The translations under genes were made by a program, and so were the position numbers. Shown here piece by piece: positions 37,762 to 63,522 of a stretch of 64,000 nt of DNA. This DNA is from an uncultured virus (IMG/VR IMGVR_UViG_3300006103_001171) (taxonomy: Duplodnaviria; Heunggongvirae; Uroviricota; Caudoviricetes), in IMG/VR virus record IMGVR_UViG_3300006103_001171; one strand, 5' to 3'. The notes under the pieces are model-generated. The model worked only from the letters and a program-made list of their open reading frames with translations, had not been told where the DNA came from and searched no databases. Numbering within the stretch: position 1 is the stretch's first letter; every line of letters starts with the position of its first letter.

Positions 37762-37804
37762 TTGACAAATTAAAAAACTTTTCGTATATTTGCATATATT
37801 TATT
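37762..37804 (+). promoter_or_regulatory. tRNA-array promoter, copy 2 (host-type box plus TATTTAT box in tandem)
   Basis: TTGACA...TATATTTGcaTATATTTATT. Confidence 0.8.
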
Positions 37805-37827
37805 AATAACGAACAAAAATTATCACA

Positions 37828-37929
37828 ATGATAGCAAACATAAACAATATGATTAATTCGATAAATTGGAGACATAATAGTCGCTCAATTAATCAAGTCA
37901 TGCTATCTAGTGATGTTAATAAAATATAA
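37828..37929 (+). CDS. Putative attenuator leader peptide 1 (Ile/Asn/Met/Ser/Trp/Arg/His/Asp)
   Basis: MIANINNMINSINWRHNSRSINQVMLSSDVNKI*, between the promoter and a terminator upstream of the tRNA array. Confidence 0.75.
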   Translation: MIANINNMINSINWRHNSRSINQVMLSSDVNKI

Positions 37930-37950
37930 CAAATTAAATCACAAATAACG

Positions 37951-37988
37951 AAAAGCCTCTGACTCATACGAATCAGAGGTTTTTTTTT
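37951..37988 (+). terminator. Intrinsic terminator/attenuator of tRNA array 2
   Basis: gcctctga...tcagaggt followed by a T-run. Confidence 0.85.
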
Positions 37989-37992
37989 ACCC

Positions 37993-38166
37993 ATGTCAGA
38001 AGAAATACGATATAAGAAATTAGGTGTTGTAAAACAAAAAGACTTGGATGCTGATTTTGATTCGATATACGATAAGTATAAGAGTATTGCTTTAGAACTT
38101 GGTTTAACAGGTGATTTAAAGTTTGTAAAAGAAAAGGGTAAAGTAATAATTTACATAGCTATTTGA
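37993..38166 (+). CDS. Small hypothetical protein (57 aa) inside the attenuated transcript, not in the ORF track
   Basis: MSEEIRYKKLGVVKQKDLDADFDSIYDKYKSIALELGLTGDLKFVKEKGKVIIYIAI*. Confidence 0.55.
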   Translation: MSEEIRYKKLGVVKQKDLDADFDSIYDKYKSIALELGLTGDLKFVKEKGKVIIYIAI

Positions 38167-38182
38167 CATTTAGGAAAAACAC

Positions 38183-38283
38183 ACGTAAATGACCGAGTGG
38201 TCGAAGGTGGTAGGCTCCAACCCTACTGAGATATATAACATTTATGTTAGGTCTCCGCATAGGTTCAAATCCTATTTTACGTG
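38183..38283 (+). tRNA. tRNA-Trp (CCA) with long variable arm
   Basis: gtagg-CTCCAAC-cctac; T arm atagg-TTCAAAT-cctat; acceptor acgtaaa/tttacgt. Confidence 0.7.
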
Positions 38284-38293
38284 CAAAATATAT

Positions 38294-38460
38294 TGGTAGG
38301 TGATGAAATTAGGAATTATATTCCGATGGCAGACATGCCCAATTGTCTCTTGGGTGGTGATAACGAGATAGATAAACAATACAGGGTTGACCACTAGCTT
38401 GCAAGCGTTAATGTTGTTTATTGAATCGCACCGTGGATGGTTCGAATCCTCCTCTACCAG
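38294..38460 (+). tRNA. Expanded tRNA-Asp (GTC)-like RNA (about 167 nt)
   Basis: Acceptor tggtagg/tctacca, cccaa-TTGTCTC-ttggg arm, GGTTCGAATCC T loop, and large inserts. Confidence 0.5.
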
Positions 38461-38504
38461 CAATAGTTTACTTGGACAACGTTCTTAAAATCGGAGTCCG
38501 TCAT

Positions 38505-38587
38505 GGAGAGTGGCACCCAAGGTGGGTAACTAGACTTGAAATCTAGGCCAAGGTAAAAACTTGAGGTTTCGATTACTTCACCATCCG
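38505..38587 (+). tRNA. tRNA-Ser (TGA)
   Basis: ctaga-CTTGAAA-tctag; long variable arm. Confidence 0.7.
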
Positions 38588-38615
38588 CAATTTTGGTTGT
38601 TTTTTACTTTTTTTT

Positions 38616-38704
38616 GGAGAAATAAGGAGGGTAATGGTGGACCCCGTCCGTTTGCTAAACGGAAACCCATTAAGTTGGGCACGTTTCGATTACGTATTTC
38701 TCCG
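38616..38704 (+). tRNA. tRNA-Ser (GCT)
   Basis: tccgt-TTGCTAA-acgga; acceptor ggagaaa/tttctcc-G. Confidence 0.7.
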
Positions 38705-38706
38705 CT

Positions 38707-38794
38707 GGATATATTGGCAGAGTGGTTTAATGCAATTTGCGTGAAGCAAATGGTCCTTAAAGGGCCCACAGGTTCGAATCCTGTATATTATCTC
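38707..38794 (+). tRNA. tRNA-Ser-like (TGA), atypical loop
   Basis: atttg-CGTGAAG-caaat, long variable arm, GGTTCGAATCC. Confidence 0.5.
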
Positions 38795-38801
38795 TAAATA
38801 T

Positions 38802-38875
38802 GGGTTTCGAAGCTTTAAGGTGAAGCGCAAGTTTGTGGCACTTGAGAACTCGGTTCGATACCGTGCGTTACCCCA
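38802..38875 (+). tRNA. tRNA-His (GTG)
   Basis: caagt-TTGTGGC-acttg. Confidence 0.7.
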
Positions 38876-38907
38876 AAATTGTTTTAAGTAATTAACTGTT
38901 AAAAAAT

Positions 38908-38980
38908 GGGTAGTTAGTTCAACTGGTAGAGCACTGTTCTGATACGACAGCCGTTACAGATTCGACTTCTGTACTACCCA
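38908..38980 (+). tRNA. tRNA-Ile (GAT)
   Basis: ctgtt-CTGATAC-gacag; acceptor gggtagt/actaccc. Confidence 0.8.
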
Positions 38981-38985
38981 CAAAT

Positions 38986-39058
38986 TGGTCTTTAGCTCAA
39001 TTGGTAGAGCAAGATACTCATAATATCGAGGTAATGGGTTCGATTCCCGTAGGACCAA
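38986..39058 (+). tRNA. tRNA-Ile2/Met (CAT)
   Basis: gata-CTCATAA-tatc; canonical D and T arms. Confidence 0.8.
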
Positions 39059-39082
39059 CATAATATTCTTCCATGGTGAAAT

Positions 39083-39154
39083 GGCTTGGTAGCTCAAAGG
39101 TGGAGCATTCGTTTGTTAAACGACAGGTTGAGATATCGTAATTCTCCCAAGCCG
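39083..39154 (+). tRNA. tRNA-Asn (GTT)
   Basis: tcgt-TTGTTAA-acga; acceptor ggcttgg/ccaagcc. Confidence 0.75.
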
Positions 39155-39222
39155 CAAATTAACTTTTTTTGTTAATTATTTGACTTTTTGTTCGAACTGT
39201 GTATATTTATAATAAAGAATAT

Positions 39223-39969
39223 ATGAAAGAAAAAATATTAGAATTAAGGAAAAATGGGTTATCAATAAATGAAATAGTTGAAGAGTTAAAGTGTGCTAAA
39301 AGTACTGTTTCATACCATATAAATAAAAACGGTTTAGGTGGTATTAGAAATAGGTTCTTAAAAGGTGTTAGTGATGAAACGATAAATAAAATTAAAATTT
39401 TTAGATTAGAGTCTAAAACATATAATGAAATTTTAGAGTTAATTGACATAAGTGAGGATAAATTAAAAAAAATTTGTCGATTATTTGAGATAAATAATAG
39501 TACTGGTGGTTTTAAACTTAAAGATGTTGATAAAGATGAGGTTATAAAGTATTATTTATCTGTAAAATCAATACGAAAAACTGCTGATTATTTTAATATT
39601 AGTAGAGACACAGTTAAAAAATATATACCTGACAATCTTATCTTAATTAAAGATAAAATAACCAAATCACAATCAGTTATTAATTGGCGTAAAAGAACAA
39701 AAATTAAATTAATTGATTATAAAGGTGGTTGTTGTGAAAAGTGTGGTTATAATAAATCTACATCAGCATTACAATTTCATCATTTAAACCCTAAAGAAAA
39801 GGATTTTCAAATTGGTGGTTCAAGTTATTCATTTGAAAATCTAAAAAAAGAAGTTGATAAATGTATATTAGTATGTGCAAATTGTCATATCGAAATACAT
39901 GAAGAATTAAGGATTTGTAGCTCAGAGGCAGAGCATTCGTTTGTTAAACGACAGGTCGAGATATCGTAA
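39223..39969 (+). CDS. HNH homing endonuclease with N-terminal HTH domains
   Basis: 'YKGGCCEKCGY...LQFHH...KCILVCANCHIEIH'; the C-terminus runs into a tRNA remnant. Confidence 0.85.
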   Translation: MKEKILELRKNGLSINEIVEELKCAKSTVSYHINKNGLGGIRNRFLKGVSDETINKIKIFRLESKTYNEILELIDISEDKLKKICRLFEINNSTGGFKLKDVDKDEVIKYYLSVKSIRKTADYFNISRDTVKKYIPDNLILIKDKITKSQSVINWRKRTKIKLIDYKGGCCEKCGYNKSTSALQFHHLNPKEKDFQIGGSSYSFENLKKEVDKCILVCANCHIEIHEELRICSSEAEHSFVKRQVEIS

Positions 39970-39982
39970 TTCTCCATTAGCG
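39911..39982 (+). pseudogene. Disrupted second copy of tRNA-Asn
   Basis: Nearly identical to 39083..39154 from the D arm onward, but the 5' acceptor strand does not pair with the 3' cattagc. Confidence 0.75.
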
Positions 39983-39987
39983 CACAT

Positions 39988-40057
39988 TGCGTAGGTTATC
40001 GGAATACAACCATCTCTCATAAGGAAGGTCAAGGCGGTTCAGCTCCGCTCTACGCAA
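39988..40057 (+). tRNA. tRNA-Met (CAT)-like, reduced D arm
   Basis: Acceptor tgcgtag/ctacgca, CTCATAA loop, gcgg-TTCAGCT-ccgc. Confidence 0.5.
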
Positions 40058-40060
40058 CAT

Positions 40061-40133
40061 GGTTCCATAGTTCAATGGATTAGAACAGATGATTACGAAT
40101 CATCCGATAAGCGTTCGAGTCGCTTTGGGACTA
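40061..40133 (+). tRNA. tRNA-Arg (ACG)
   Basis: gatga-TTACGAA-tcatc. Confidence 0.8.
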
Positions 40134-40249
40134 CAGTATAGTAAATGTGATATAAGAAGAACTAATATCAGGTGGAGTTAGTGTCCGTACCACGTTAAAA
40201 AATTGTGATGATTATACAAGGTGTTGTCGAGTACACAACTATACTATTT

Positions 40250-40276
40250 GGTCTTGTCGTTCAATGGATTAGGACT
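40250..40276 (+). pseudogene. 5' half of a disrupted tRNA-Arg
   Basis: ggtcttg-tc-gttcaatggattaggac; ggtcttg pairs with cgagacc at 40962..40968. Confidence 0.75.
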
Positions 40277-40283
40277 ACTATAA

Positions 40284-40356
40284 GCTTCTATGGTGTAACT
40301 GGATAACACTTTTGCCTTCTAAGCAAACTTTCTGAGTTCGAATCTCGGTAGGAGCA
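40284..40356 (+). tRNA. tRNA-Arg (TCT)
   Basis: tttgc-CTTCTAA-gcaaa; acceptor gcttcta/taggagc. Confidence 0.8.
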
Positions 40357-40409
40357 CTAGTTAAATGGATATTTTTTTTCTTTTTCCATTTAACGATATA
40401 TTTATTAGT

Positions 40410-40946
40410 ATGGAAAAAGAATTTTTAATTGATTGTATTAATAAAGGGTTAAGTCTAAAAAAAATAAGTAAATTATGTGGTAAAGCACCTAGTACAATAA
40501 CATATTGGTTAAATAAATTTAATTTAAAAACTAATAATTTGTCGTTTAAAGTTAAAGGAAAAATTGATTATAATAATCAAAGATGTTGCCCAAAATGTAA
40601 AATTACTAAAGAATTAAATGAATTTTATAATAGACGTGATAAAATAGGTAGTTCAGTTTATTGTAAAACTTGTACCAATAAACAAGTTTTAGATAGACAA
40701 CGGGAACTTAAGCAACAAGCTGTTGATTATAAAGGTGGGTATTGTATAATATGTGGTTATAATAAATGTAATGCGGCGTTAGAATTTCATCATTTAGAAC
40801 CAGATAAAAAAGATTTTAGCATTAGTCAATTAAAAAAATATGCCTTTACTGAAAATATAAAAAAAGAATTAGATAAATGTATTTTGTTATGTTCTAATTG
40901 TCATAGAGAATTTCATTCTGGTATTTTAATTCTAAGCAAACTATAG
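40410..40946 (+). CDS. HNH homing endonuclease
   Basis: 'YKGGYCIICGY...LEFHH...KCILLCSNCHREFH'; start taken at MEKEFL after the ATATTTATT box. Confidence 0.85.
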   Translation: MEKEFLIDCINKGLSLKKISKLCGKAPSTITYWLNKFNLKTNNLSFKVKGKIDYNNQRCCPKCKITKELNEFYNRRDKIGSSVYCKTCTNKQVLDRQRELKQQAVDYKGGYCIICGYNKCNAALEFHHLEPDKKDFSISQLKKYAFTENIKKELDKCILLCSNCHREFHSGILILSKL

Positions 40947-40969
40947 CAGTTCGAATCTGCTCGAGACCA
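40930..40969 (+). pseudogene. 3' half of a disrupted tRNA-Arg (TCT)
   Basis: TTCTAAgcaaac...gcag-TTCGAAT-ctgc-t-cgagacc-A. Confidence 0.75.
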
Positions 40970-40979
40970 CATTTTTTAT

Positions 40980-41067
40980 GGAGAGCAAACCCTGACGGTG
41001 AGGGGGTCCGCCTGCTAAGCGTGAAGTTCGGCGAAAGCTGGATTCGGTTCAACTCCGATGTTCTCCG
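40980..41067 (+). tRNA. tRNA-Ser (GCT)
   Basis: cgc-CTGCTAA-gcg, long variable arm, acceptor ggagagc/gttctcc-G. Confidence 0.7.
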
Positions 41068-41088
41068 CATTTTTCATTTGTTGTTTTT

Positions 41089-41112
41089 AAGGGTACTTCG
41101 GTACCCTTTTTT
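41089..41112 (+). terminator. Terminator closing tRNA array 2
   Basis: aagggtac-TTCG-gtaccctt followed by a T-run. Confidence 0.85.
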
Positions 41113-41135
41113 ATTTTATGGGATATTTATAAAAT

Positions 41136-41780
41136 ATGCAAAAAGCTAAATTTATACTTCACGAACAAATGAATCGTATTCATGAATTATCTGGAAACAA
41201 TATGGTTTCAGGTAAACATCTAGTTGTTGTTGATATTCAACCAGAATACGAACAATGGTGCAGTCACATTCTCCCAGAATTTGTTGATTTTTTAAATGAA
41301 AACTATGAAACCCTTTCCAGATTAACTTTCCTATATAATGGTGATAGTCTTGGTATGGTTTCTGAGGGTAACTATCAAAATTGGTGGTTCGATAATGGCT
41401 TAAGTGAAGATGTAATTTACAGTTCAAGGTTTTATGATAAAGGCTACGCATTTTTTAGGTATTGTATTGATGAGGGTATAGATGATGAAACTATTGTTAA
41501 CCTAATAAAGTACATGCTTGAAAAGGATGTATTTGATACTAGAGAATTAGATGAGGAATTCTGGGATGAGTATGTCGAAAGATATGGTGCTGCGCATATC
41601 AGAGAATTATTAGAATTTGCTGGGGACTCAATGAATATACCAGACCTTATGGATGAATTAAAAAATTATACAAACATAATATTATGTGGTGGTGGGATTG
41701 ATGAGTGTCTTAAAGAGGTTGAAATAGCTCTTCAAGTACTTAACAAACACTATACTGTTTTAACAAAATATACATACTAA
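41136..41780 (+). CDS. Isochorismatase/cysteine-hydrolase-like protein
   Basis: 'LVVVDIQ' and 'ILCGGGIDECL' motifs. Confidence 0.45.
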   Translation: MQKAKFILHEQMNRIHELSGNNMVSGKHLVVVDIQPEYEQWCSHILPEFVDFLNENYETLSRLTFLYNGDSLGMVSEGNYQNWWFDNGLSEDVIYSSRFYDKGYAFFRYCIDEGIDDETIVNLIKYMLEKDVFDTRELDEEFWDEYVERYGAAHIRELLEFAGDSMNIPDLMDELKNYTNIILCGGGIDECLKEVEIALQVLNKHYTVLTKYTY

Positions 41781-42491: not shown

Positions 42492-42809
42492 ATGGACATA
42501 CATAAGAAAATTAAAGACTTTGAAGATAGTTTAAAAATCTTTGCACACAAATTGGCTGAGCAAGGTAAAGAAACTGAGGTCGCAGCTAAAATTCTTGAGA
42601 AACACATAAAGGGTATTGATGTTACACCTGAAGAAGATGTGTTATTAAAACAAAACATTTACGATACCTTAAAAATAGCTGGAATTGGTATACCATTTAT
42701 GCTGATACCAGGTGCTAGTGTCATATTACCAGCGTTAATTATACTAGCGAAAAAAAACAATATTAATTTATTACCGTCAAAATTTATTGAAGATGAAAAA
42801 AGTAATTAA
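42492..42809 (+). CDS. Hypothetical protein with a hydrophobic segment
   Basis: ORF from MDIHKK, after a TATATTTG box. Confidence 0.55.
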   Translation: MDIHKKIKDFEDSLKIFAHKLAEQGKETEVAAKILEKHIKGIDVTPEEDVLLKQNIYDTLKIAGIGIPFMLIPGASVILPALIILAKKNNINLLPSKFIEDEKSN

Positions 42810-43725
42810 GCAAATCTTAAGAGAAAACACTGAGAAGAATATTTTAGGTATTACCGTAACAAGACCTAATCAAGAGTTGATTATTATGAGAGGAATCTCT
42901 GGTAGTGGTAAAAGCACAATGGCTAAATCATTAGTTAAGGGTGGTGTCATACATTCAACCGATGACTTAATAGAAGCAACTGGTGATTATAATGGATTCT
43001 TTGCTAAAATGATAGAAGCAAATAACTTTGCTGATTTAAGTCGTATGCACTCTAATAACCTCAAGAATGCGATGAAATCTATGGATAATGGTATAAGTCC
43101 AGTCATAATAGATAACACGAATTTAAGACCTAGTGAGGCTAAACCATACGTAATGTATGCGTTAGAGATAGGCTATGCTGATGATAATATTAAAATTGTT
43201 GATGTTGGTACTGGTGGGTTAAGTGCTGAAGCTTTAGCGGCTAGAAATTCTCATGGTGTTCCATTAGAGAATATTCAACGAATGATTAATACTTATAATG
43301 GTGTCGGCCCTTTAACTCTCAATAAAATTATTGAGGCTAGTGACATGTATAAATCATCTAATGTTTTATATTCTTGTGTTTTATTAGATGATAATTCACG
43401 TAATTTATTATTATTAACATTTGCCGATGTTATACCGAATGGATGGAAAACGATAGCACATCATATGACAATTGTTTTTGGTAAGGGTATTGACGATAAA
43501 AATGAGTTGGGTAAAGAAGTTGTATTAACAGTTACAAACGTTGGATGGAATGATAAAGCAATAGCTGTTTTGGTTGATGGTTATCCATCTAAAAATGCTA
43601 ATCCACATATTACATTAGCTATTAATCCAGATGGTGGTAAACCTAAGGATTCTAATGAAATTACAGATTGGAAAAAAATTAGACCATTTAAAATAAATGG
43701 TGTTGTGACAGAAATTAAAAAATAA
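42793..43725 (+). CDS. Polynucleotide kinase (P-loop) fused to a 2H cyclic phosphodiesterase
   Basis: 'RGISGSGKST' and 'IIDNTN'; C-terminal 2H motifs 'HMTI' and 'HITLA'. Confidence 0.8.
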   Translation: MKKVIKQILRENTEKNILGITVTRPNQELIIMRGISGSGKSTMAKSLVKGGVIHSTDDLIEATGDYNGFFAKMIEANNFADLSRMHSNNLKNAMKSMDNGISPVIIDNTNLRPSEAKPYVMYALEIGYADDNIKIVDVGTGGLSAEALAARNSHGVPLENIQRMINTYNGVGPLTLNKIIEASDMYKSSNVLYSCVLLDDNSRNLLLLTFADVIPNGWKTIAHHMTIVFGKGIDDKNELGKEVVLTVTNVGWNDKAIAVLVDGYPSKNANPHITLAINPDGGKPKDSNEITDWKKIRPFKINGVVTEIKK

Positions 43726-43771
43726 ATTTGTTTGTTTGGTTTCTATTCTGTATATTTGCAAAAAGTTTTTT

Positions 43772-44146
43772 ATGACAAAAGAAGAAAGAAGGCTTGACCT
43801 AAGCGGTAAGCTATTAAAAATGGGTGAGTCTTTAATATTAGAGGGTCGAGATTCTATGGATGGTTGTGTCATGGAAACTGGTAGTGCGTTAATTTTATTG
43901 GCTAATATCATTGAATCAGAAGATGATATGTTTGTTTTTGGTGAATTTGTATCTATGTTTTCAGCTAAGAAAGTATTAGAGGAAATGGAAAATAAGAAAA
44001 AACCTAATACAACTGAAGATTTACTAAAGGAAATTCTTGATTCATTTAAGAATGTCGGTAGTGATTTACCAAAAGAAACACCCAAAAAGACTCGTAGACC
44101 AAGAAAAAAAAGAAACGACAATGATGAACCAGAATCTGGTTCATAA
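43772..44146 (+). CDS. Hypothetical protein
   Basis: ORF from MTKEER. Confidence 0.55.
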   Translation: MTKEERRLDLSGKLLKMGESLILEGRDSMDGCVMETGSALILLANIIESEDDMFVFGEFVSMFSAKKVLEEMENKKKPNTTEDLLKEILDSFKNVGSDLPKETPKKTRRPRKKRNDNDEPESGS

Positions 44147-44169
44147 TTTTTAATATTAAAAAATAAAAT

Positions 44170-44760
44170 ATGTTAGCAATAGTAGAATACATAAAGAAAA
44201 ATGGTTTAGATAATGCTATCGAAACTTTTAATTTAAAGGCTAAATTATACGAAAATAAGGTTCACATTAAATATGACCAAATAGGTTCGGATATGTCTCT
44301 TAAGGAGGTTCAAGAATGTCGTGGACTTATCCTAGATAGAAATACATTTGATGTAATCTCAATGTCCTTTTTCAAGTTCTTTAATAACGGTGAAACTAAT
44401 GCTGCTAAGATAGACTGGGATACAGCTCATGTATTTGAAAAAGTTGATGGTTGCCTTGATGAAAATACGTTGATAACGACTAATGAAGGTGTTAAAACGA
44501 TTAAGGAAATTTGTGAAGAAAAACTTAATTGTAAAGTCTTGTCATATTGGGTTAATAGTAATGAGATTATCTTTGATGATATAATTGGATGGTCAATTAA
44601 GGATAATATTAATGATTGGTATGAAATTAAATTGGATGACGAAACTTCAATTAAACTGACTGGTAATCATAAGGTTTGGTTACCAAAGCTAAATTGTTAT
44701 AGACAAGTTTCAGATTTAACGGAAGCGGATGAATTCTTATTAAGTACTAAAAAAAATTAA
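44170..44760 (+). CDS. T4 Rnl1-like RNA ligase N-extein fused to split intein N part
   Basis: 'ECRGLIL', 'KFFN', motif I 'EKVDG', immediately followed by intein block A 'CLDENTLI' and block B 'LTGNHKV'. Confidence 0.88.
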   Translation: MLAIVEYIKKNGLDNAIETFNLKAKLYENKVHIKYDQIGSDMSLKEVQECRGLILDRNTFDVISMSFFKFFNNGETNAAKIDWDTAHVFEKVDGCLDENTLITTNEGVKTIKEICEEKLNCKVLSYWVNSNEIIFDDIIGWSIKDNINDWYEIKLDDETSIKLTGNHKVWLPKLNCYRQVSDLTEADEFLLSTKKN

Positions 44761-45146
44761 ATTCTGGCAGCAATGTTTCAAATTTAGAAAAACGAATTGG
44801 TTATACTTTAGATAATTTAAATATTAAATTTGAAACTCAATATTTAATTAATAGGTTTTCTTATGATTATTATATCAATGATATAAATTTATTAATAGAG
44901 GTTAATGGTGATTTTTGGCGTGCTAACCCAATAAAATATTTACCTGATGATATATTACCATTTCCGAAAAGTATTGAAATTAAAGCCAAAGATTTATGGT
45001 TAAAGGATAAACGAAAGAATGAATTAGCGATTAAAAATGGTTTTAATATAGTTACAATTTGGGAAATGGAGATTAATAATTTAAATAGTGTTGAACTTGA
45101 AATATTTTTGTTAAATAAATTAAATAACTTTATAAATGGAGACTAA
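44751..45146 (+). pseudogene. Start-less Vsr/DUF559-like endonuclease frame between the intein halves
   Basis: -1 frame open from the A8 run: ..SNLEKRIGYTLDNLNIKFETQY..YDYY..LLIEVNGDFWRANP..KDKRKNELAIKNGFNIVTIWE..; no upstream ATG. Confidence 0.75.
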
Positions 45147-46098
45147 CGTAGTTAAAATAAAATCAATTAAAAAAATTGATTCTAATTCGAAAAGATATGA
45201 CATACAAACAAAATTAACTAATAACTTTTTCGCTAATAATATTCTAGTTCATAACTCGATGATGCAAGTTTATTGGGACCCTTACGCTAATAAGTGGTTT
45301 GCTGGAACTACAGGTACTGCCGAAGGTGAGGGTGAAGTAAACAATAAGTCTGGGACAACGTTTAATGATTTGTTTTGGCAAGTTGTAAACGACAAAGCTC
45401 CAAATATGCTTAGGTGGTTAAATAAGTTAAAGCATTGCACGTTTGTGTTTGAATTAACAACACCTTATAACATTGTGGTTAAGCCGCATGGTGAATCTAG
45501 TATTACACTTTTAGCTGCAAGAGATAATCAAACACTTAAAGAGTTAAGGTATATTGATTTAAAGGTATTAGCAACAACTTTTGGTGTGCCAATAGTTAAA
45601 TTATTCGACTTAAAAGCTAAGAACTTTGGTGACTTGATTAGAACATTTGAAGGAATGCCATGGTCTGAAGAAGGTTATGTCGTAATGGATGAAAACTTCA
45701 ATCGTGTTAAAGTTAAGAACCCAGCATACTGCGCTGTACATTTACTAAAAGGTAAATCAGCTGAACATAACATTTTAACAATCGTTAAGTCTAACGAAAT
45801 TGAAGAATTCGCATCAACTTTCCCAGAAAGAAAAGAAGAATTATTTAAGCTTAAGGCCAACTACGATTTGTTGAATGCAAAGTTAAATTCAGTGTGGGAT
45901 GAACTAATACCAAGAAAGCCTAAAAACATAACAGCTAATGAAAAGAAGTTGTTTGCGGCTGCTGTATTTGAAGTTTGTAAGAAGCATAAGGTTGATAATT
46001 TCACTGGGTTATTCTTCCAATTGGAAGCTGGTAAAATAGAATCAGTTGATGAGTATTTGATGGAATATGACAATAAAAAGTTGTACCATATACTTTAA
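45136..46098 (+). CDS. Split intein C part fused to RNA ligase C-extein
   Basis: 'VKIKSIKKI..RYDIQT..NNFFANNILVHN|S', followed by ligase motifs 'FEL', 'EGYVV' and 'RVKVKN'. Confidence 0.88.
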   Translation: METNVVKIKSIKKIDSNSKRYDIQTKLTNNFFANNILVHNSMMQVYWDPYANKWFAGTTGTAEGEGEVNNKSGTTFNDLFWQVVNDKAPNMLRWLNKLKHCTFVFELTTPYNIVVKPHGESSITLLAARDNQTLKELRYIDLKVLATTFGVPIVKLFDLKAKNFGDLIRTFEGMPWSEEGYVVMDENFNRVKVKNPAYCAVHLLKGKSAEHNILTIVKSNEIEEFASTFPERKEELFKLKANYDLLNAKLNSVWDELIPRKPKNITANEKKLFAAAVFEVCKKHKVDNFTGLFFQLEAGKIESVDEYLMEYDNKKLYHIL

Positions 46099-46158
46099 AA
46101 AATAAATTTGGTGGAATGAAAGTTCCACCTTATTTTTGCACTCTAAATAAAATAAACA

Positions 46159-46890
46159 ATGACAATTAAGCAAATTTTCGATGAAATCGCAAGCGAATCA
46201 TCTACGAACAAAAAAGTTGAAATCCTTAACAAGTATAAAGACAATGACTTATTAAAGAGGGTTCTGTATTTGGCTAATTCACCTCGTATTAAGTTTTATA
46301 TCAAGCAAATTCCAGAGTATGAATCTGGTCCATTTAATCAAGACTTATCAGTTGGTTTGGATAGCTTGAGTCCATTATCCTTAAGGCAATTAACTGGACA
46401 TGCTGCCATAAATCACTTAGCTGCAACTCTTGAGTTTTGTAGCGAAGATGATGCTTATATCATCGAGCGTATCATCGAAAAGGATTGCAAAATTAATTTG
46501 GGTACTTCACTTATTAATAAAGTATTTCCTAAACTAATTGAAGAAACACCTTACATGGGTGCTAAGGCTTTTGATGAGAAATTAGCTAAGGCTATATTTA
46601 AAGATGGTTCAGCTTTAAGCCAAGTTAAGATGGATGGTCGTTATTGCAATGCTGTAATAGCGAATAATTCAGTTGATATGGAAAGCCGCCAAGGTGAACC
46701 AACGCTATTAGGTGATGCGTATTTTATAAGCGAATTAAATCAGCTTAAGGATTGCGTTTTAAACGGTGAGTTGACAATGAAGTGTATTGAATCTAAATTT
46801 ACTTTTAATAAAGACGATTTAATCGAAATTGACGGTATTAAATATACCACCAAAGAAATAAAAAATAAATTTTTACCATTAATTGAATAA
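46159..46890 (+). CDS. ATP-dependent DNA ligase, N-terminal half of a split gene
   Basis: Motif I 'KMDGRY', motif III 'VLNGEL', then a 35-aa non-ligase tail. Confidence 0.85.
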   Translation: MTIKQIFDEIASESSTNKKVEILNKYKDNDLLKRVLYLANSPRIKFYIKQIPEYESGPFNQDLSVGLDSLSPLSLRQLTGHAAINHLAATLEFCSEDDAYIIERIIEKDCKINLGTSLINKVFPKLIEETPYMGAKAFDEKLAKAIFKDGSALSQVKMDGRYCNAVIANNSVDMESRQGEPTLLGDAYFISELNQLKDCVLNGELTMKCIESKFTFNKDDLIEIDGIKYTTKEIKNKFLPLIE

Positions 46891-46928
46891 AATGAAAGTT
46901 CAACATATTTATAAATAAATATAAATTT

Positions 46929-47825
46929 ATGTATGTAACTTATTTAATTATTTATAATGGTGATAAATTACCACCATTATATATTGGGTCAACTAGTTTA
47001 GAAAAAATAGAGAATGGGTATCGAGGGTCAATCTCATCGAAGAAATATAAAAATATTTTTAAAGAAGAGTTAAAAAGTAATTTTAACCTATTCGATGTTA
47101 TCATTCTATCAAAACATGAAACTAGAATTGAAGCATTGGAAATGGAATTAGATTTACAAAAAAAGTTTGATGTGGTAAAATCAAATAAATTTATGAATCA
47201 ATCCTTAGCATCAGTTAATGGCATGTTTGGTATGGATGTAAATGGTAAAAATAACCCAATGTTTGGTAAGAAACATTCAGACAAAACAAGAAATGTACTA
47301 AAGGAAAAACGTGGAAATAATAAACGATATGAATTAACCGATAAACATAAAGAAATTATTAGTAAAACACACGCTAATAAAGTTATTTCTGAAAACACAA
47401 AAAAATTAATTTCAGATAAATTAAAGGGTAAATACATAGGTAAAGATAATCCTATGTTTGGTAAAAAACATAGTGAAGAGACTAAAATTAAAATATCTAA
47501 AAGTAACAGTGGTAAAATTAGAACAGATGAATTCAAACAAAGAACATCCGAATTAAATAAGGGTAAAATTATTTCTGAAGATACCAAGATAAAAATATCT
47601 AGGGCTAAAATCGGAAAAAAACGTACTTCTTTTAGTAAAGAGTGGCGAGAAAATATATCTAAAGCTAATAAAGGTAGAATTCTTAGTGAAGAAACTCGAA
47701 AAAAACTGAGTAAACCAAGAGAATCAACAAAATCGGTATGCCCATATTGTGGGTTTATTGGTGGTGGCGGTAATATGAAACGCTATCATTTTGAGAATTG
47801 TAAAATAAATAAAAATAAGGTATGA
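46929..47825 (+). CDS. GIY-YIG-like homing endonuclease with NUMOD3 repeats
   Basis: 'YVTY...LYIGST', repeated 'NPMFGKKHS.ET', and C-terminal 'CPYC...MKRYHFENCK'. Confidence 0.85.
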   Translation: MYVTYLIIYNGDKLPPLYIGSTSLEKIENGYRGSISSKKYKNIFKEELKSNFNLFDVIILSKHETRIEALEMELDLQKKFDVVKSNKFMNQSLASVNGMFGMDVNGKNNPMFGKKHSDKTRNVLKEKRGNNKRYELTDKHKEIISKTHANKVISENTKKLISDKLKGKYIGKDNPMFGKKHSEETKIKISKSNSGKIRTDEFKQRTSELNKGKIISEDTKIKISRAKIGKKRTSFSKEWRENISKANKGRILSEETRKKLSKPRESTKSVCPYCGFIGGGGNMKRYHFENCKINKNKV

Positions 47826-48652
47826 ACATTAATTCTAATGAAATAAAAAAAATAATAGTTAATAACGATGGTAGTCTTGAAATATTGACAATGAAGGGTA
47901 TATCTCGTTACGAGAGCAACGGCATCATAGCATCTCTTATTTCAATTAGAAAGAAAGAATTAGATGGTAAGGATGTACGCAAGGAAATACTTGAGTTTGA
48001 AAAAGAACACATGGTTTATCAAACAGCGTTGGATTCAATTATTTTCACTGCTTGGGATATGATAACACTTGAAGAATATACTGCCGCTAAATCAGTTAGA
48101 CAATATCGTGAAAGATACGCTGAATTGGTTGCGCTATTAAACGCTAATAATTTTACCAATCTTTCAGTTGTTGAAACAAAAGAGGTTAAGACTTATGAAG
48201 AAGCTATTGAACACTTTCAAGAGGTTTTAGCTAGAGGTGAAGAAGGTACAATACTTAAATCATCTAAGGGTGCTTGGAAAGACGGTAAACCTAACCATCA
48301 AATTAAGCTAAAAAAAGAAATTAATCTTGATTTAAAAATTGTAGGTTTTAATTACGGAACGGGTAAAAATAAAGACGTTATATCATCCATTGATGTTGAG
48401 AGTTCAGATGGTTTACTTAAAACGAGCCCGACAGGAATTAATGAATCTATGATGAAATTTATCACAGAAAATCAGGATAAACTTTTGAACACTATTATTG
48501 AGGTAAAGTGTTCTGGGTTGTCAAAGGATTCAGATGGTAATTATTCTTTGTTACACCCAGTATTCAAATCTTTACGTACTGATGAAAAGAGTATTGCTGA
48601 TTCATTAGATGAGTGTATTAAAATAGATAAAGCTGCTATGGGGTTATCTTAA
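47822..48652 (+). CDS. ATP-dependent DNA ligase, C-terminal half
   Basis: 'RYESNG', 'WDMI', motif IV 'EEGTILK', motif V 'KLK', and OB-fold 'HPVF..LR.D'. Confidence 0.85.
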   Translation: MNINSNEIKKIIVNNDGSLEILTMKGISRYESNGIIASLISIRKKELDGKDVRKEILEFEKEHMVYQTALDSIIFTAWDMITLEEYTAAKSVRQYRERYAELVALLNANNFTNLSVVETKEVKTYEEAIEHFQEVLARGEEGTILKSSKGAWKDGKPNHQIKLKKEINLDLKIVGFNYGTGKNKDVISSIDVESSDGLLKTSPTGINESMMKFITENQDKLLNTIIEVKCSGLSKDSDGNYSLLHPVFKSLRTDEKSIADSLDECIKIDKAAMGLS

Positions 48653-48830
48653 CGGCGTACCAACCAATATACATTTTATTAGCAATTAATACTTCTTTTT
48701 TAATTGTATTTCCTTGGTATATTGGTTTACCATTATTGTAATAAGATTTTCTTAATGCCTTCGTTGGTAAACCATTTGTTTTACATATTGTTTCAAAATT
48801 ACCGTTACACATGAACATAAGTAAGTTTAT

Positions 48831-49247
48831 TTGTTAAAAAAACAATGGGTGAAGAATAATCATCAAGGTGTAAATGAATATCGTAAAAATTACTATTTAA
48901 ATAATAAAGAAAAAATACTAACAAAAAATAAAGAATGGAATAAAAAAAATGCGCATATTGTATCTTGGCGCACCATTTTGAAATCGCAACTTAGGAGAAT
49001 GGGTAATAGTAAAGAAGGAAAAACAATTGATTTATTAGGGTATTCAGCGTTAGAACTGAAAAACCATATCGAATCCTTATTTACTGAAGGTATGACTTGG
49101 GATAATCATGGTGAATGGCATATTGACCATAAAATACCCGTAACTAAATTTGAAAAAAATGTTCCTCCACATATTGTAAATGCGTTAAATAATTTACAAC
49201 CATTATGGGCGAACGAAAACAGAAGTAAATATAATAAAATTTTATAA
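48831..49247 (+). CDS. HNH-type endonuclease (possibly truncated)
   Basis: 'GMTWDNHGEWHIDH..P...NLQPLWA.EN..K'. Confidence 0.7.
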   Translation: MLKKQWVKNNHQGVNEYRKNYYLNNKEKILTKNKEWNKKNAHIVSWRTILKSQLRRMGNSKEGKTIDLLGYSALELKNHIESLFTEGMTWDNHGEWHIDHKIPVTKFEKNVPPHIVNALNNLQPLWANENRSKYNKIL

Positions 49248-49263
49248 ATTAAAAATAATTGAA

Positions 49264-50097
49264 ATGACAAGTAAACGACATATCGGGTTTCCATCTATTG
49301 ACCAGTTTAAGACAGTTGTCTCCAACATCAATAGAAGACACAATTTTGTTGGTTTGGATGCCAACGGTGATGCAATTTATGACCCATCAAAACCTAAGCC
49401 AAAGCTTAAGTTTAAGGGTACGGTAAAACTACATGGTACCAACTTCGGTGTATGTTATAATGACATCGCTGGATTATGGGCACAATCTAGGGAAAATATA
49501 ATCACCTCCCAAAAAGATAATGCTGGCTCCGCTTTTTTTGTTGAGTCCAATACAGAAGCTTTCTTGGATTTATTTAACCAAGTAAAGAATAAGTTAAATT
49601 TGGATTTGACTCAAAACACAATTTCAATTTATGGTGAGTGGGCTGGTAAGGGTATTCAAAAGTCTGTTGCGATTTCCAATTTGGATAAGTCTATGTTTAT
49701 TTTTGGTGTTAAGATTACACCTCATCCAAAGGATGAAGATGATAAGACACCAGCTTATTGGGTTGATTCGTCATACCTAAGGAACCATGAGCATAGGATT
49801 TACAATATTGAGGATTATGAGACTTATGAGATTGAAATCGATTTCAATTATCCTCAATTGGCTCAGAATAAGCTAATTGAAATGACTATTGCTGTTGAGG
49901 ATGAATGTCCTGTTGGTAAAGCCTTTGGTCATGTTGCGTTAACAGACAATACAGCATATGAAGAAAATGGTAAAATTTGGTTTGAACGAGAAAATAGTTT
50001 TACAGATATATTAAAAAATCAATTAATTGATGAATTTAGAATACTTCGTAATAAATATCCGATAGGTATAAATAAAATATTTTTTACTATTCTATAG
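49264..50097 (+). CDS. Rnl2-like RNA ligase, N-terminal half of a split gene
   Basis: Motif I 'KLHGTN', 'QSR', 'IYGEW' and 'FIFG', then a roughly 55-aa non-ligase tail after 'CPVGKAFG'. Confidence 0.8.
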   Translation: MTSKRHIGFPSIDQFKTVVSNINRRHNFVGLDANGDAIYDPSKPKPKLKFKGTVKLHGTNFGVCYNDIAGLWAQSRENIITSQKDNAGSAFFVESNTEAFLDLFNQVKNKLNLDLTQNTISIYGEWAGKGIQKSVAISNLDKSMFIFGVKITPHPKDEDDKTPAYWVDSSYLRNHEHRIYNIEDYETYEIEIDFNYPQLAQNKLIEMTIAVEDECPVGKAFGHVALTDNTAYEENGKIWFERENSFTDILKNQLIDEFRILRNKYPIGINKIFFTIL

Positions 50098-51136: not shown

Positions 51137-51148
51137 AAATAAAATAAA

Positions 51149-56894: not shown

Positions 56895-56937
56895 TTGACA
56901 ATTCAAAAACTTTTCGTATATTTGCAGTATATTTATT
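56895..56937 (+). promoter_or_regulatory. tRNA-array promoter, copy 3
   Basis: TTGACAattcaaaaacttttcgTATATTTGcagTATATTTATT. Confidence 0.8.
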
Positions 56938-56961: not shown

Positions 56962-57042
56962 ATGAGAAATTTAAACAACATATTGGTCCTTGTGTTATGT
57001 GTGCTAGTGTTAACTAGTTCTACTGGGTATTCCATGTTTTAA
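56962..57042 (+). CDS. Putative attenuator leader peptide 2 (Leu/Cys/Val)
   Basis: MRNLNNILVLVLCVLVLTSSTGYSMF*; codons 8-17 are ttg gtc ctt gtg tta tgt gtg cta gtg tta. Confidence 0.75.
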   Translation: MRNLNNILVLVLCVLVLTSSTGYSMF

Positions 57043-57066: not shown

Positions 57067-57097
57067 AAGCTCAGTCCGAAAGAACTGAGCTTTTTTT
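57067..57097 (+). terminator. Intrinsic terminator/attenuator of tRNA array 3
   Basis: aagctcagt-ccgaaaga-actgagctt followed by a T-run, ending just before tRNA-Cys. Confidence 0.85.
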
Positions 57098-57099
57098 AT

Positions 57100-57961: not shown

Positions 57962-58049
57962 GGCCCTATGAGCAAATTGGTAAAGCTTGCGGTCTAAGAA
58001 ACCGTGGAAAACATTAGAAACGTTCTCAGTTCAAATCTGAGTAGGGCTA
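57962..58049 (+). tRNA. tRNA-Leu (AAG)
   Basis: gcggt-CTAAGAA-accgt; long variable arm; acceptor ggcccta/tagggct-A. Confidence 0.75.
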
Positions 58050-58051
58050 CT

Positions 58052-58446: not shown

Positions 58447-58447
58447 T

Positions 58448-58529
58448 GGGGGTATGCTGGAAATGGTATACAGCTACGGTTTAGACCCGTAGGTCAAAAG
58501 ATTTGCAAGTTCGAACCTTGTTACCCTCA
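58448..58529 (+). tRNA. tRNA-Leu (TAG)
   Basis: tacgg-TTTAGAC-ccgta; acceptor gggggta/taccctc-A. Confidence 0.8.
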
Positions 58530-58531
58530 CA

Positions 58532-58614
58532 AAGATGATTTCAGCAAATAAATAGGATAAAAATTTACACTTAAAATGCAAATCGAAAGGGTTCAAATCC
58601 CTAAAAATCATCTT
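58532..58614 (+). ncRNA. Stem-CAGCAA RNA containing tRNA-like arms
   Basis: aagatgattt/aaatcatctt stem, CAGCAA, CTTAAAA loop, and T arm aggg-TTCAAAT-ccct. Confidence 0.55.
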
Positions 58615-58687
58615 GTTTTTTATTAACATATTAAATAATAGTAGAGTTTATATTTACATTTTCATAAACTCTACTATATTTATTAAT

Positions 58688-59356
58688 ATGAGAAAAGATA
58701 TTATAGAAAAAGAAAATGATGTTTTACAAATGATTGCAAATAATGACCCTAAAGCAATGATTTGTAGGTTTTTAAATTGTAGACCAGAGGTTCTTGAAAA
58801 ATATTTAAAATTAAAGGGTATTAAATATAGTGGTAATCGTAGAATGGTTGGTCGGAGAAATCATCCGCATAAAAAATCTGTGGATGAATATTTGGCTCAA
58901 GATAGGATATCAATACATAAATTAAGAATTAAACTTATAGAAGAGGGTATTAAAAAAAATGAGTGTGAAAATTGTAAATTAACTGAATGGTGTGGAAGTA
59001 AAATTCCTTTAGAGTTGCATCATATAGATGGAAATAAATTAAATAACGATTTAAATAACCTACAAATCTTATGTCCAAATTGCCATGCGTTAACACCAAA
59101 TCACGCTGGAAAAAAGAATAAAAAGAAATTTGAAGATAAAGCTATCCATAAAAGAATAAAACTTTGTAAATGCGGCAAGACAATAAAAAAAACTAGTAAT
59201 GAATGTCTTAGTTGTTATCATGAAAAACAACGTAAGATTAAAAATGCTAATTTAACGGAATTAATAGATAGTGTTAATAAAATTGGTTATTTAGCGACTG
59301 GTAGAAAATATGGTGTTAGTGATAACACAATTAGAAAATATATAAACAAAAAATAA
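58688..59356 (+). CDS. HNH homing endonuclease
   Basis: 'CENC...LELHHIDG...N...NLQILCPNCHA'; start taken at MRKDII. Confidence 0.85.
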   Translation: MRKDIIEKENDVLQMIANNDPKAMICRFLNCRPEVLEKYLKLKGIKYSGNRRMVGRRNHPHKKSVDEYLAQDRISIHKLRIKLIEEGIKKNECENCKLTEWCGSKIPLELHHIDGNKLNNDLNNLQILCPNCHALTPNHAGKKNKKKFEDKAIHKRIKLCKCGKTIKKTSNECLSCYHEKQRKIKNANLTELIDSVNKIGYLATGRKYGVSDNTIRKYINKK

Positions 59357-62531: not shown

Positions 62532-62587
62532 AACTAGTTCTTAAAGTCACTAAAAAAAAAATTTTTTAAAAATAATTCAAAAAAAAC

Positions 62588-62629
62588 TTGACAATTCAAA
62601 AACTTTTCGTATATTTGCATATATTTATT
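62588..62629 (+). promoter_or_regulatory. tRNA-array promoter, copy 4
   Basis: TTGACAattcaaaaacttttcgTATATTTGcaTATATTTATT. Confidence 0.8.
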
Positions 62630-62653
62630 AACAACAAGTAACAATTAAAAGAT

Positions 62654-62752
62654 ATGAAAAAGGCATATACATATTATCAACCGAAAACGCAAGGGGGCAA
62701 AACTCCTAATAGGCTGGGTGTATCTTTTTCTGATGAAGATGATTGTAAGTAA
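62654..62752 (+). CDS. Putative attenuator leader peptide 3 (Tyr/Thr/Gln/Pro/Gly/Lys)
   Basis: MKKAYTYYQPKTQGGKTPNRLGVSFSDEDDCK*. Confidence 0.75.
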   Translation: MKKAYTYYQPKTQGGKTPNRLGVSFSDEDDCK

Positions 62753-62772
62753 ACAATTAGTAAGATATAAGT

Positions 62773-62809
62773 AAACCCCAGTCTGATGAAAATTCAAACT
62801 GGGGTTTTT
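62773..62809 (+). terminator. Intrinsic terminator/attenuator of tRNA array 4
   Basis: aaaccccagt...actggggttttt, ending just before tRNA-Pro. Confidence 0.85.
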
Positions 62810-62815
62810 AATTTT

Positions 62816-62890
62816 CGGGAAGTTCCACAGATGGCTATATGGGCTTGTTTTGGAGACAAGTGTTCGCTCGTTCGAATCGAGTTTTCCCGA
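62816..62890 (+). tRNA. tRNA-Pro (TGG)
   Basis: cttgt-TTTGGAG-acaag; acceptor cgggaag/tttcccg-A. Confidence 0.75.
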
Positions 62891-62939
62891 CACAGATTGG
62901 TTGGTACCGTAGACAGCAAAAATAAGGAACGGTATAAAA

Positions 62940-63027
62940 CTAAGTGTGTAGTCAATCGAAGACGACTCCCTTTGGAGCGGAGAATAGCTGTAAAAGGCTT
63001 ATGCAGGTTCGAGCCCTGTCACTTAGA
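62940..63027 (+). tRNA. tRNA-Pro (TGG)-like, long variable arm
   Basis: Acceptor ctaagtg/cacttag, TTTGGAG loop, gcagg-TTCGAGC-cctgt. Confidence 0.55.
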
Positions 63028-63034
63028 CTAAAAT

Positions 63035-63106
63035 TGGGTTGTGGTGTAATGGTAACTACGTGTGGTTTTGGTCCACAAGTTTGGGGTTCGAGTCCCTACA
63101 ACCCAA
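63035..63106 (+). tRNA. tRNA-Gln (TTG)
   Basis: tgtgg-TTTTGGT-ccaca. Confidence 0.85.
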
Positions 63107-63191
63107 CAAAGTAAAGAAGTAATTGGGTTAGCTGTTTTCCGTGGCTGGTCTGATGAAGGTTAAGTCCTTATGATTAAATAACGGATAAATT

Positions 63192-63263
63192 GGGATAGCC
63201 AGCAGGGTTCTGAAGACAGTCTGTAAAACTGAACTTCGTGTGTTTCGAGTACACCCTATCCCA
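63192..63263 (+). tRNA. tRNA-Tyr (GTA), atypical short form
   Basis: cagt-CTGTAAA-actg; acceptor gggatag/ctatccc-A. Confidence 0.55.
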
Positions 63264-63268
63264 CATTT

Positions 63269-63350
63269 GGGTCAGTCGCATAGAGGCAATTGCCGCGGAC
63301 TGTAAATCCGCTCTCTTCGGAGTTCACAGGTTCGAGTCCTGTTTGGCCCA
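63269..63350 (+). tRNA. tRNA-Tyr (GTA)
   Basis: gcgga-CTGTAAA-tccgc; long variable arm. Confidence 0.85.
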
Positions 63351-63358
63351 CAAAAAAT

Positions 63359-63429
63359 GCCTCCAAAGCATATATGGTGATGTACCTGACTTGTAATCAG
63401 GGAAGTTGATTCGAGTTCAACTGGAGGCT
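63359..63429 (+). tRNA. tRNA-Thr (TGT)
   Basis: cctga-CTTGTAA-tcagg. Confidence 0.8.
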
Positions 63430-63450
63430 CAAGAGTCTTATATAAAAAAT

Positions 63451-63522
63451 GCGGATATAGCACAGTGGTTAGTGTTGGGGTCTTCCAAACCTCAGACGTC
63501 AGTTCGAATCTGACTATCCGCT
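63451..63522 (+). tRNA. tRNA-Gly (TCC)
   Basis: ggggt-CTTCCAA-acctc; acceptor gcggata/tatccgc-T. Confidence 0.85.

Follow-up and report, generated by a model that had tools for sequence, protein, structure and literature searches.

Three arrays of transfer RNA (tRNA) genes in an uncultured phage of the class Caudoviricetes are each preceded by a promoter of one shared type, a short open reading frame (ORF) and an intrinsic terminator, and each short ORF specifies a putative leader peptide enriched in the amino acids of the tRNAs of its own array. The sequence is the IMG/VR record IMGVR_UViG_3300006103_001171; "the window" is the whole analysed stretch of 64,000 nucleotides (nt), in which the three elements occupy positions 37762 to 41068, 56895 to 58530 and 62588 to 63523. 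The correspondence between leaders and arrays is real and, once related phages are included, far beyond chance. We consider it probable (about 0.7) that the elements are multivalent, trp-style ribosome-mediated transcription attenuators which would tune the tRNA supply of the phage.

Organization of the tRNA array elements

An earlier note on this DNA had described near-identical promoters and the same layout in three places. Both descriptions held, except that in element 1 a 57-codon ORF stands before the first tRNA. The motif CGTATATTTGCA occurred 14 times in the window at no more than one mismatch, against 0.45 occurrences expected. Its extended version of about 45 nt, composed of an A-run, TTGACAA, AAAAACTTTT and then the motif CGTATATTTGCA, was present at four sites only (36255, 37762, 56895 and 62588) and is common to all three elements. 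The promoter core consists of TTGACA, 16–17 nt and TATATT within CGTATATTTGCA; in the two regions scanned, the four copies were the top sigma-70-like matches, each with 11 of 12 consensus positions. The TAnnTTTG of these promoters is presumably the −7 element of Bacteroidota. The copies at 37762, 56895 and 62588 each precede an ORF starting with ATG, then a hairpin with a T-run, and then tRNA genes. The fourth copy, which heads an array of two Met tRNAs, serves as an internal contrast to the three leader-bearing arrays.

Element 1
37762..37794, plus strand: promoter; TTGACA, 17 nt, TATATT within CGTATATTTGCA; 11/12 consensus matches
37828..37929, plus strand: leader ORF 1; 33 codons and stop; 26/32 post-start residues are array 1 amino acids
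37896..37903, plus strand: weak candidate antiterminator strand 1; pairs with 37955–37965 in an interrupted 8-pair match
37954..37988, plus strand: intrinsic terminator 1; 12-nt arms, 4-nt loop, 9 T; −13.7 kcal/mol (RNAfold); 24 nt past the stop codon
37993..38166, plus strand: 57-codon ORF separating terminator 1 from the tRNA genes; relatives conserve it; 0 Pfam families
38183..41068, plus strand: tRNA array 1; CCA-anticodon tRNA with an extra arm, 168-nt tRNA-like gene, Ser (four genes), His, Ile, Met(CAT) (two genes), Asn, Arg(ACG), Arg(TCT)

Element 2
56895..56926, plus strand: promoter; shared extended motif; 11/12 consensus matches
56962..57042, plus strand: leader ORF 2; 26 codons and stop; 6 Leu and 1 Cys among 25 residues, plus 4 Val
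57021..57027, plus strand: candidate antiterminator strand 2; 7 pairs with the 5′ arm at 57068–57075, two of them G-U
57067..57097, plus strand: intrinsic terminator 2; 11-nt arms, GAAA loop, 7 T; −12.7 kcal/mol (RNAfold); 24 nt past the stop codon
57100..58530, plus strand: tRNA array 2; Cys(GCA), Leu(TAA), Leu(AAG), Leu(TAG), with small ORFs interspersed

Element 3
62588..62619, plus strand: promoter; shared extended motif; 11/12 consensus matches
62654..62752, plus strand: leader ORF 3; 32 codons and stop; Tyr, Thr, Gln, Pro and Gly make up 13/31 residues, 12 of them within codons 5–18
62710..62721, plus strand: predicted antiterminator strand 3; 11 pairs with 62775–62785
62774..62809, plus strand: intrinsic terminator 3; 13-nt arms, 7-nt loop, 5 T then AATTTT (to 62815); −17.0 kcal/mol (RNAfold); 21 nt past the stop codon
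62816..63523, plus strand: tRNA array 3; Pro(TGG) (two genes), Gln(TTG), Tyr(GTA), Thr(TGT), Gly(TCC)

Fourth promoter copy
36255..36287, plus strand: promoter heading a Met/Met tRNA array, with neither leader ORF nor terminator

The plus-strand terminators are calls of RNAfold; with a simple terminator scanner, hairpins 1 and 3 were reported for the minus strand alone and hairpin 2 was not detected. The tRNA-Cys gene begins 3 nt past the T-run of terminator 2 and the first tRNA-Pro gene 7 nt past the first five T's of terminator 3. These gaps are too small for a promoter, and the tRNAs therefore need read-through of the hairpin. In element 1, the 57-codon ORF begins 5 nt past the T-run and could itself contain a promoter.

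Amino acid composition of the leaders

Composition was counted over the residues after the start codon and compared with the proteome of the window. Own-array amino acids made up 26 of the 32 residues of leader 1 (expected fraction 0.375; binomial p 5e-7), 7 of the 25 residues of leader 2 (0.094; p 0.007) and 13 of the 31 residues of leader 3 (0.226; p 0.013), and all six off-diagonal pairings of leaders with arrays were depleted, in agreement with the earlier claim that each leader is built from the amino acids of its own array. If the doubtful Asp gene of array 1 is dropped, the count for leader 1 becomes 25 of 32.

The earlier note had also proposed random short ORFs as a background. Among 253 other short ORFs of the window, none reached the own-array fraction of leader 1, while 17 and 10 reached those of leaders 2 and 3. 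Length-matched windows of 51 long ORFs of the window gave empirical p values of <2e-4, 0.005 and 0.054 for leaders 1, 2 and 3, respectively. The match of leader 1 is exceptional by itself; those of leaders 2 and 3 within the window are moderate and suggestive. Leader 3 also contains 5 Lys residues, and arrays of relatives homologous to array 3 extend with Lys tRNAs. Lys, Glu, Val, Ala and Phe are absent from the arrays of the window; in the related phage G002 they are served behind additional leaders.

Co-variation of leaders and arrays among related phages

Scans of viral and metagenome contigs with the promoter pattern gave 105 matches in 57 distinct stretches. The arrangement of promoter, short ORF, terminator and tRNAs was present in 25 of the 57 (the table was read by eye); the remaining stretches carried ordinary genes, or tRNAs straight behind the promoter. 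Altogether, metagenomic relatives yielded about 25 distinct leaders, which fall into about eight families. More leaders were obtained from the tRNA regions of four related phage records by a promoter-blind scan for a short ORF followed by a hairpin with a T-run and a tRNA, and two further leaders were spotted by eye after the hypothesis was formed. The promoter-blind scan missed element 1 of the window, in which odd tRNAs and the 57-codon ORF intervene, the leader of phage G004, which has an upstream in-frame ATG, and locus L078, which has a 1.9-kb insertion. Because it misses known cases, its count of leaderless arrays is an upper bound.

The leaders of the window are conserved as peptides, with cores such as NSINWRHNSRS and TYQPK..TQGGKTP, and leader 1 is kept as a reading frame in L004, L005, L010, L050, L018 and L054. 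The frame from ATG to stop was kept in 23 of 23 loci. Among close relatives, the four indels inside the ORFs (read by eye) were all multiples of three, whereas the spacers behind the stop codon had indels of 1, 2, 4 and 5 nt (also read by eye). The distance from stop codon to hairpin was 21–35 nt in 22 of the 23 loci.

Examples of leaders from relatives, each with the amino acids of note in the peptide and the tRNAs of the array behind it, are as follows.

L043: leader MINTSLYLKHSLSLVLRYEAHSVYLEG (Leu, Ser, Tyr, His, Arg, Lys); array Leu (four genes), Arg, Lys, Tyr, His, Ser
L104: leader MIQVNNIFDFNIEAAEADFGTQRLR (Asp, Phe, Glu, Ala, Gln); array Asp, Ala, Phe, Gln, Glu
L106: leader MKNYKTYKGCDAKADKGCDYILNGQNMSV (Lys, Tyr, Asp, Ala, Cys, Gly); array Lys, Tyr, Asp, Gly, Ala, Cys
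L078: leader MKLLTNILTLNPNPLYNGNRGNVQSIVCSEYKI (Leu, Asn, Pro, Tyr, Arg); array Arg, Pro, Asn, Leu, Leu, Tyr

The array of L078 lies beyond two inserted endonuclease-like ORFs; its first six tRNAs were chosen after viewing, and the N-terminus of its leader resembles that of family 2.

All 19 leaders evaluated against length-matched windows of real proteins were above the null mean, with empirical p values from <2e-4 to 0.19, the weakest of which came from loci with truncated arrays. The permutation test of leader against array across relatives, as proposed in the earlier note, came out clearly in favour of co-variation: the true pairing ranked 1 of 120 for five unrelated families and 1 of 5040 for seven families, and in the latter case the own array was the best array for 7 of 7 leaders. 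With ten representatives, the true pairing was reached by 0 of 200,000 permutations, but these loci are related, and the two family-level tests are the conservative ones.

Position of the matched residues and pairing with the terminator

Matched residues are concentrated towards the start of the ORF: six unrelated families together had 72 of them among the 106 positions of its first two thirds, versus 17 among the 57 of its final third (p 3e-6), and 14 representatives had 176 of 250 versus 39 of 134. The two leaders found later had 11 of 20 versus 0 of 10 and 15 of 21 versus 1 of 11. The best pairing with the own terminator 5′ arm was located in the last third of the ORF. Outside the clade of element 1, the p values of this pairing against dinucleotide shuffles were 0.007–0.12. 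When leaders and arms of the 14 representatives were swapped, the total for own-arm pairings was −157.7 kcal/mol, whereas permuted pairings averaged −116.5; 0 of 100,000 permutations attained the own-arm total, and the own arm ranked third or better in 11 of 14. For the two leaders found later, own-arm pairing had −14.9 kcal/mol (0 of 300 shuffles, p <0.004) and −11.5 kcal/mol (p 0.007). The pairing strand is, in most families, no more than about 25 nt from the stop codon, so that a terminating ribosome would cover it at least partly.

The earlier note had claimed complementarity to the terminator 5′ arm in each leader. This was upheld for element 3, is weak in element 2 and does not rise above chance in element 1. 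The predicted pairing in element 3 has −14.6 to −15.8 kcal/mol (p 0.012–0.037), and its strand sits 30–43 nt before the end of the stop codon. Across family 3, 75.9% of the cells of the helix were paired, compared with 25–59% when the helix was slid along the alignment; 3 of the 11 pairs were changed on both sides, and the covariation was 0.247, against 0.167, with 2 of 500 shuffles attaining it. One of the aligned sequences supplied the helix, which biases the comparison somewhat in its favour. The candidate pairing in element 2 has −8.9 kcal/mol (p 0.07–0.12), and the segment homologous to its strand pairs with different arms in L027 and L101. The weak pairing in element 1 (−5.2 to −7.6 kcal/mol, p 0.22–0.51) was not above shuffles; 5 of 5 close relatives carry it unchanged, it shows no covariation, and it appears in the fold once a ribosome masks codons 2–8.

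Proposed mechanism and alternative explanations

In the mechanism that we propose, transcription would start at the strong promoter and a ribosome would load onto the short leader ORF, whose first two thirds are spelled in the amino acids of the downstream tRNAs. With too little charged cognate tRNA, decoding would be slow and the ribosome would lag; the pairing segment, located in the final third of the ORF, would then be free to bind the terminator 5′ arm, and RNA polymerase would enter the tRNA genes. With fast decoding, the ribosome would cover this segment, the terminator would form and the array would stay off. The outcome would be a feedback, separate for each module, that fits phage tRNA output to decoding demand. 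Since the product would be the very molecule that is sensed, the feedback on tRNA supply would be direct. We infer from the sequences that the leaders are translated and termination is regulated, and likewise the sign of the response and its physiological trigger.

A number of results weigh against this mechanism. The earlier note had called the leaders codon-matched. When codons were compared with the array anticodons under strict wobble rules, 174 of 205 were decodable against 165.4 expected; there was no signal beyond amino acid identity, and since codon choice adds nothing to it, the match stands at the amino acid level only. The leaders also do not mirror their arrays completely. Leader 2 holds 4 Val codons, and no Val tRNA was detected in array 2 of the window (homologous arrays of relatives include Val tRNAs), and the leader of L032 has 5 Thr codons with no Thr tRNA found within 2.3 kb. 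The design is not universal even in the window, as the fourth promoter copy has no leader, and the 412-kb phage G006, with 49 tRNA matches, has one doubtful leader among its tRNA blocks. Related loci are not independent, and the large permutation counts therefore overstate significance. Within the window, the antiterminator is clearly non-random for element 3 only; in the swap test the own-arm pairings of elements 2 and 1 ranked 7th and 13th of 14. Folding with ribosome-masked segments, which the earlier note had proposed, did not produce a clean switch at equilibrium. In the full transcript the terminator won at every ribosome position. In the nascent transcript the pairing of the 5′ arm shifted only modestly with ribosome position, and the arm of element 3 became available again with the ribosome at the stop codon. 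The reading of the elements as attenuators survives the comparative tests that were run, namely those of frame, co-variation, position and own-arm pairing, but finds no backing in codon choice or in the masked-ribosome folds.

The folding results, together with the lack of a clearly non-random antiterminator in elements 1 and 2, would also suit a sensor that works with the opposite sign or that has no antiterminator, so that fast translation would aid read-through in a feed-forward manner and stalling would terminate transcription; the tight and uniform spacing between stop codon and hairpin fits it as well. We regard such a sensor as unlikely. The stop codon lies at least 21 nt before the hairpin, which, given ribosome footprint sizes, is beyond the reach of a terminating ribosome, and the own-arm complementarity with its covariation and the avoidance of the last third of the ORF by matched residues would be left unexplained. 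The positional split and the complementarity would equally have no reason if the leaders were ordinary small-protein genes on strong early promoters, with the hairpin acting as a leaky terminator or as a 3′ stabiliser after an RNase P cut and with a composition match of no regulatory meaning. The order of residues, not just the composition, is conserved within leader families, leader 2 is hydrophobic and transmembrane-like, and a protein gene follows the terminator of element 1, all of which speaks for this explanation. The match recurs, however, in about eight families that differ in both peptide and array, and the neighbouring 57-codon ORF has no Pfam family (the leaders themselves were not searched); we hold this explanation to be very improbable.

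Control could also be post-transcriptional, so that stalling in the leader would alter processing or decay of the precursor by RNase P, RNase E or 3′ exonucleases and not termination. The tRNA 5′ ends 3–7 nt past the T-runs count for this, because RNase P cleavage must part leader from array. The hairpins nevertheless have the full form of intrinsic terminators, with a G+C-rich stem and 5–9 T, and the alternative pairing is aimed specifically at the terminator 5′ arm; this makes processing as the regulated step a quite remote prospect, slightly more so than a small-protein function. Hardly any weight, finally, can be given to a T-box-like mode of action, in which the leader RNA would sense tRNAs directly and not be translated. 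Such an RNA would agree with tRNAs being the controlled genes and with a leader that carries their codons, but there was no T-box or other Rfam match to the leaders, every locus retains an open frame from ATG to stop in which all indels are in frame, and up to eight amino acids per leader could not be read by a single specifier loop.

Further features of the arrays and of related loci

Two HNH endonuclease genes lie inside array 1 (39223–39969 and 40365–40946) and are paralogous (regions 39083–39988 and 40317–40958). Each terminates within a copy of the tRNA immediately upstream: a copy of tRNA-Asn, 85% identical over 78 nt, and a copy of the 3′ half of tRNA-Arg(TCT), 86% identical over 29 nt. 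Judged from these repeats, it looks as if the HNH genes homed into tRNA genes with duplication of the target. Two tRNA identities in array 1 had been given by the earlier note as Trp and Asp. The "Trp" gene at 38183–38283 does have a CCA anticodon loop, but its variable region is longer by about 28 bases (it scores 53 bits as an Rfam tRNA). The "Asp" gene at 38294–38461 could not be confirmed: it is 168 nt long, Rfam gave no tRNA at 38294–38461, and ARAGORN reports a tRNA there solely under its intron option, namely Asn with an 87-nt intron.

Behind the tRNA-Leu(TAG) gene of array 2, the stretch 58533–58612 is tRNA-like, with matching acceptor-type ends and a GGTTCAAATCC T-loop, and was not called by ARAGORN or Rfam; it may represent the remains of a tRNA gene, at a site occupied by Val in relatives. 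In leader 3, the segment ACGCAAGGGGGCAAAACTCCT (62686–62706) was nucleotide-identical in 5 sequences with differing flanks. It can fold a small GGGGG/CUCCU hairpin right before antiterminator strand 3 and may be a pause or anti-antiterminator element.

The region of the fourth promoter copy, 36255–36865, contains the promoter, a 5-codon mini-ORF, about 350 nt of unassigned, partly tRNA-like sequence and then two tRNA(CAT) genes, and this Met/Met module may be constitutive. A phage-encoded factor of the sigma-70 family (17503–18327, with regions 2 and 4) is a candidate reader of the promoters of the tRNA arrays, as is a host factor.

In locus L108 of phage G005, two ORFs of 229 and 285 codons lie on the minus strand at 7153–8859, between the leader with its terminator and the array belonging to it. 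Read from their sequence, they appear endonuclease-like and would show that mobile genes can separate arrays from leaders. A 42-codon ORF before Leu, Leu, Gln and Gln tRNAs in G006 (L111) has neither promoter nor match and was not counted as a leader. A tRNA with a CTA anticodon (ARAGORN "Pyl") was found inside an array homologous to array 3 (L003, 5700–5775, phage G002), and one with a TCA anticodon stands straight behind a similar promoter in L013 (2379–2450). These suppressor-type tRNAs hint at stop-codon reading in some of these phages.

Genomic context and RNA-repair genes

The window has a G+C content of 26–35%, and nearly all long ORFs are on the plus strand. Two compared stretches of it are identical to a 343-kb freshwater metagenome contig (L033 and L034), and the window is therefore part of a jumbo phage. 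A blastn search of 37700–41200 against the phage collection gave HNH-endonuclease and tRNA-level matches only and no close relative. The Pfam scan found phage-type genes for a GIY-YIG endonuclease, the two HNH endonucleases, a primase domain, the sigma factor, DnaJ and ClpP; RNA ligases, one of them with an intein, are also among the genes of the window. ARAGORN detected 20 tRNA genes. At the gathering score, Rfam gave 18 matches over the whole window, every one a tRNA, and neither a leader family (Trp, His, Leu, Thr or Phe leaders) nor a T-box was matched; permissive Rfam scans of 36250–38800 and 57040–58720 also gave no leader or T-box match.

A group of RNA-repair genes lies between arrays 1 and 2.

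42793..50094, plus strand: RNA-repair gene cluster; PF13671, PF08302, PF09511, PF14890, PF01068, PF09414

Of its four genes, one codes for a kinase that carries a tRNA-ligase phosphodiesterase domain and another for a T4 Rnl1-like ligase apparently interrupted by an intein; the remaining two code for a ligase domain and a further RNA ligase. In the Rnl1-like ligase (44170–46095), the matches to intein splicing domains are at the end of ORF 44170–44757 and at the start of ORF 45136–46095. We take this set of kinase and ligases to be the genes with which phages mend tRNAs cut by anticodon nucleases. The position of the RNA-repair genes between the arrays fits the link to host tRNA nucleases proposed in the earlier note, for which the evidence is circumstantial.

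Comparison with known systems and significance

The elements resemble the multivalent leader-peptide attenuators of the enterobacterial amino acid operons thr, ilvGMEDA and ilvBN, and also those of trp, his, leu and pheA. A promoter is followed by a short ORF and then by an intrinsic terminator; within the ORF, codons for several amino acids precede a segment that, in the phage elements, is predicted to pair with the terminator 5′ arm, and ribosome speed would select the fold. Attenuators of the thr/ilv type control biosynthetic enzymes, whereas the phage elements precede tRNAs. Unlike in that type, the amino acid set of a phage leader mirrors the downstream tRNA set and changes with it among relatives. 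The regulatory residues are spread over about 15–20 codons in the phage leaders and form tight runs in the thr/ilv type. The phage elements also have Bacteroidota-type promoters and no sequence or Rfam similarity to leaders of the thr/ilv type. The pheM leader of the Escherichia coli pheST operon for phenylalanyl-tRNA synthetase would be alike in that leader-peptide attenuation of a gene of the translation apparatus reports charged tRNA; it concerns one amino acid and a protein product, while in the phage elements the product would be the sensed tRNA itself, under direct autoregulation. With T-box riboswitches the elements would share the principle that tRNA status governs read-through of a terminator via an antiterminator. 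T-boxes, however, bind uncharged tRNA without translation and control synthetase or amino acid genes, whereas the phage leaders keep a reading frame. Phage tRNA clusters such as that of T4 are similar in their operon-like arrays, RNase P processing and RNA ligase and kinase for repair in the same genome; we know of no leader ORF or attenuator for them.

A literature search, which did not extend to subscription journals and old papers, found no leader peptides or attenuators before tRNA genes, and nothing useful on attenuation in Bacteroidetes. Two possible precedents were rejected. E. coli pheV has its promoter directly before the tRNA and no leader, and the relevant passage of PMC3082878 mentions a tRNA operon in another context. 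Attenuation of tRNA arrays would be a new use of a known mechanism.

The regulation of phage tRNA genes is, to our knowledge, essentially unknown, and it is debated why phages carry tRNAs at all, the two views being compensation of codon usage and replacement of tRNAs destroyed by host defences. If the proposed mechanism is true, the phage would gauge tRNA shortage directly and answer it module by module, and the debate would become testable by asking which stress (starvation, codon mismatch or an anticodon nuclease) opens which module. The leaders would then predict from sequence alone which tRNAs share a transcription unit. The reach of leader-peptide attenuation would widen beyond enzymes to include the very molecule being sensed, and would take in Bacteroidota-type hosts; the translation signals of Bacteroidota differ from the classical model.

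A wider proposal, put forward here tentatively and with clearly less confidence than the attenuator reading itself, is that large phages of Bacteroidota-type hosts might arrange their tRNA genes in self-tuning modules. A multivalent leader would list the amino acids of its module and co-evolve with the array during gain, loss or shuffling of tRNA genes, with homing endonucleases in and next to the arrays. As sensors of decoding failure, the modules would fire both when the codon usage of the phage outruns the host tRNA pool and when defences cut or deplete particular tRNAs, and might in that case form an inducible counter-defence together with the RNA-repair genes.

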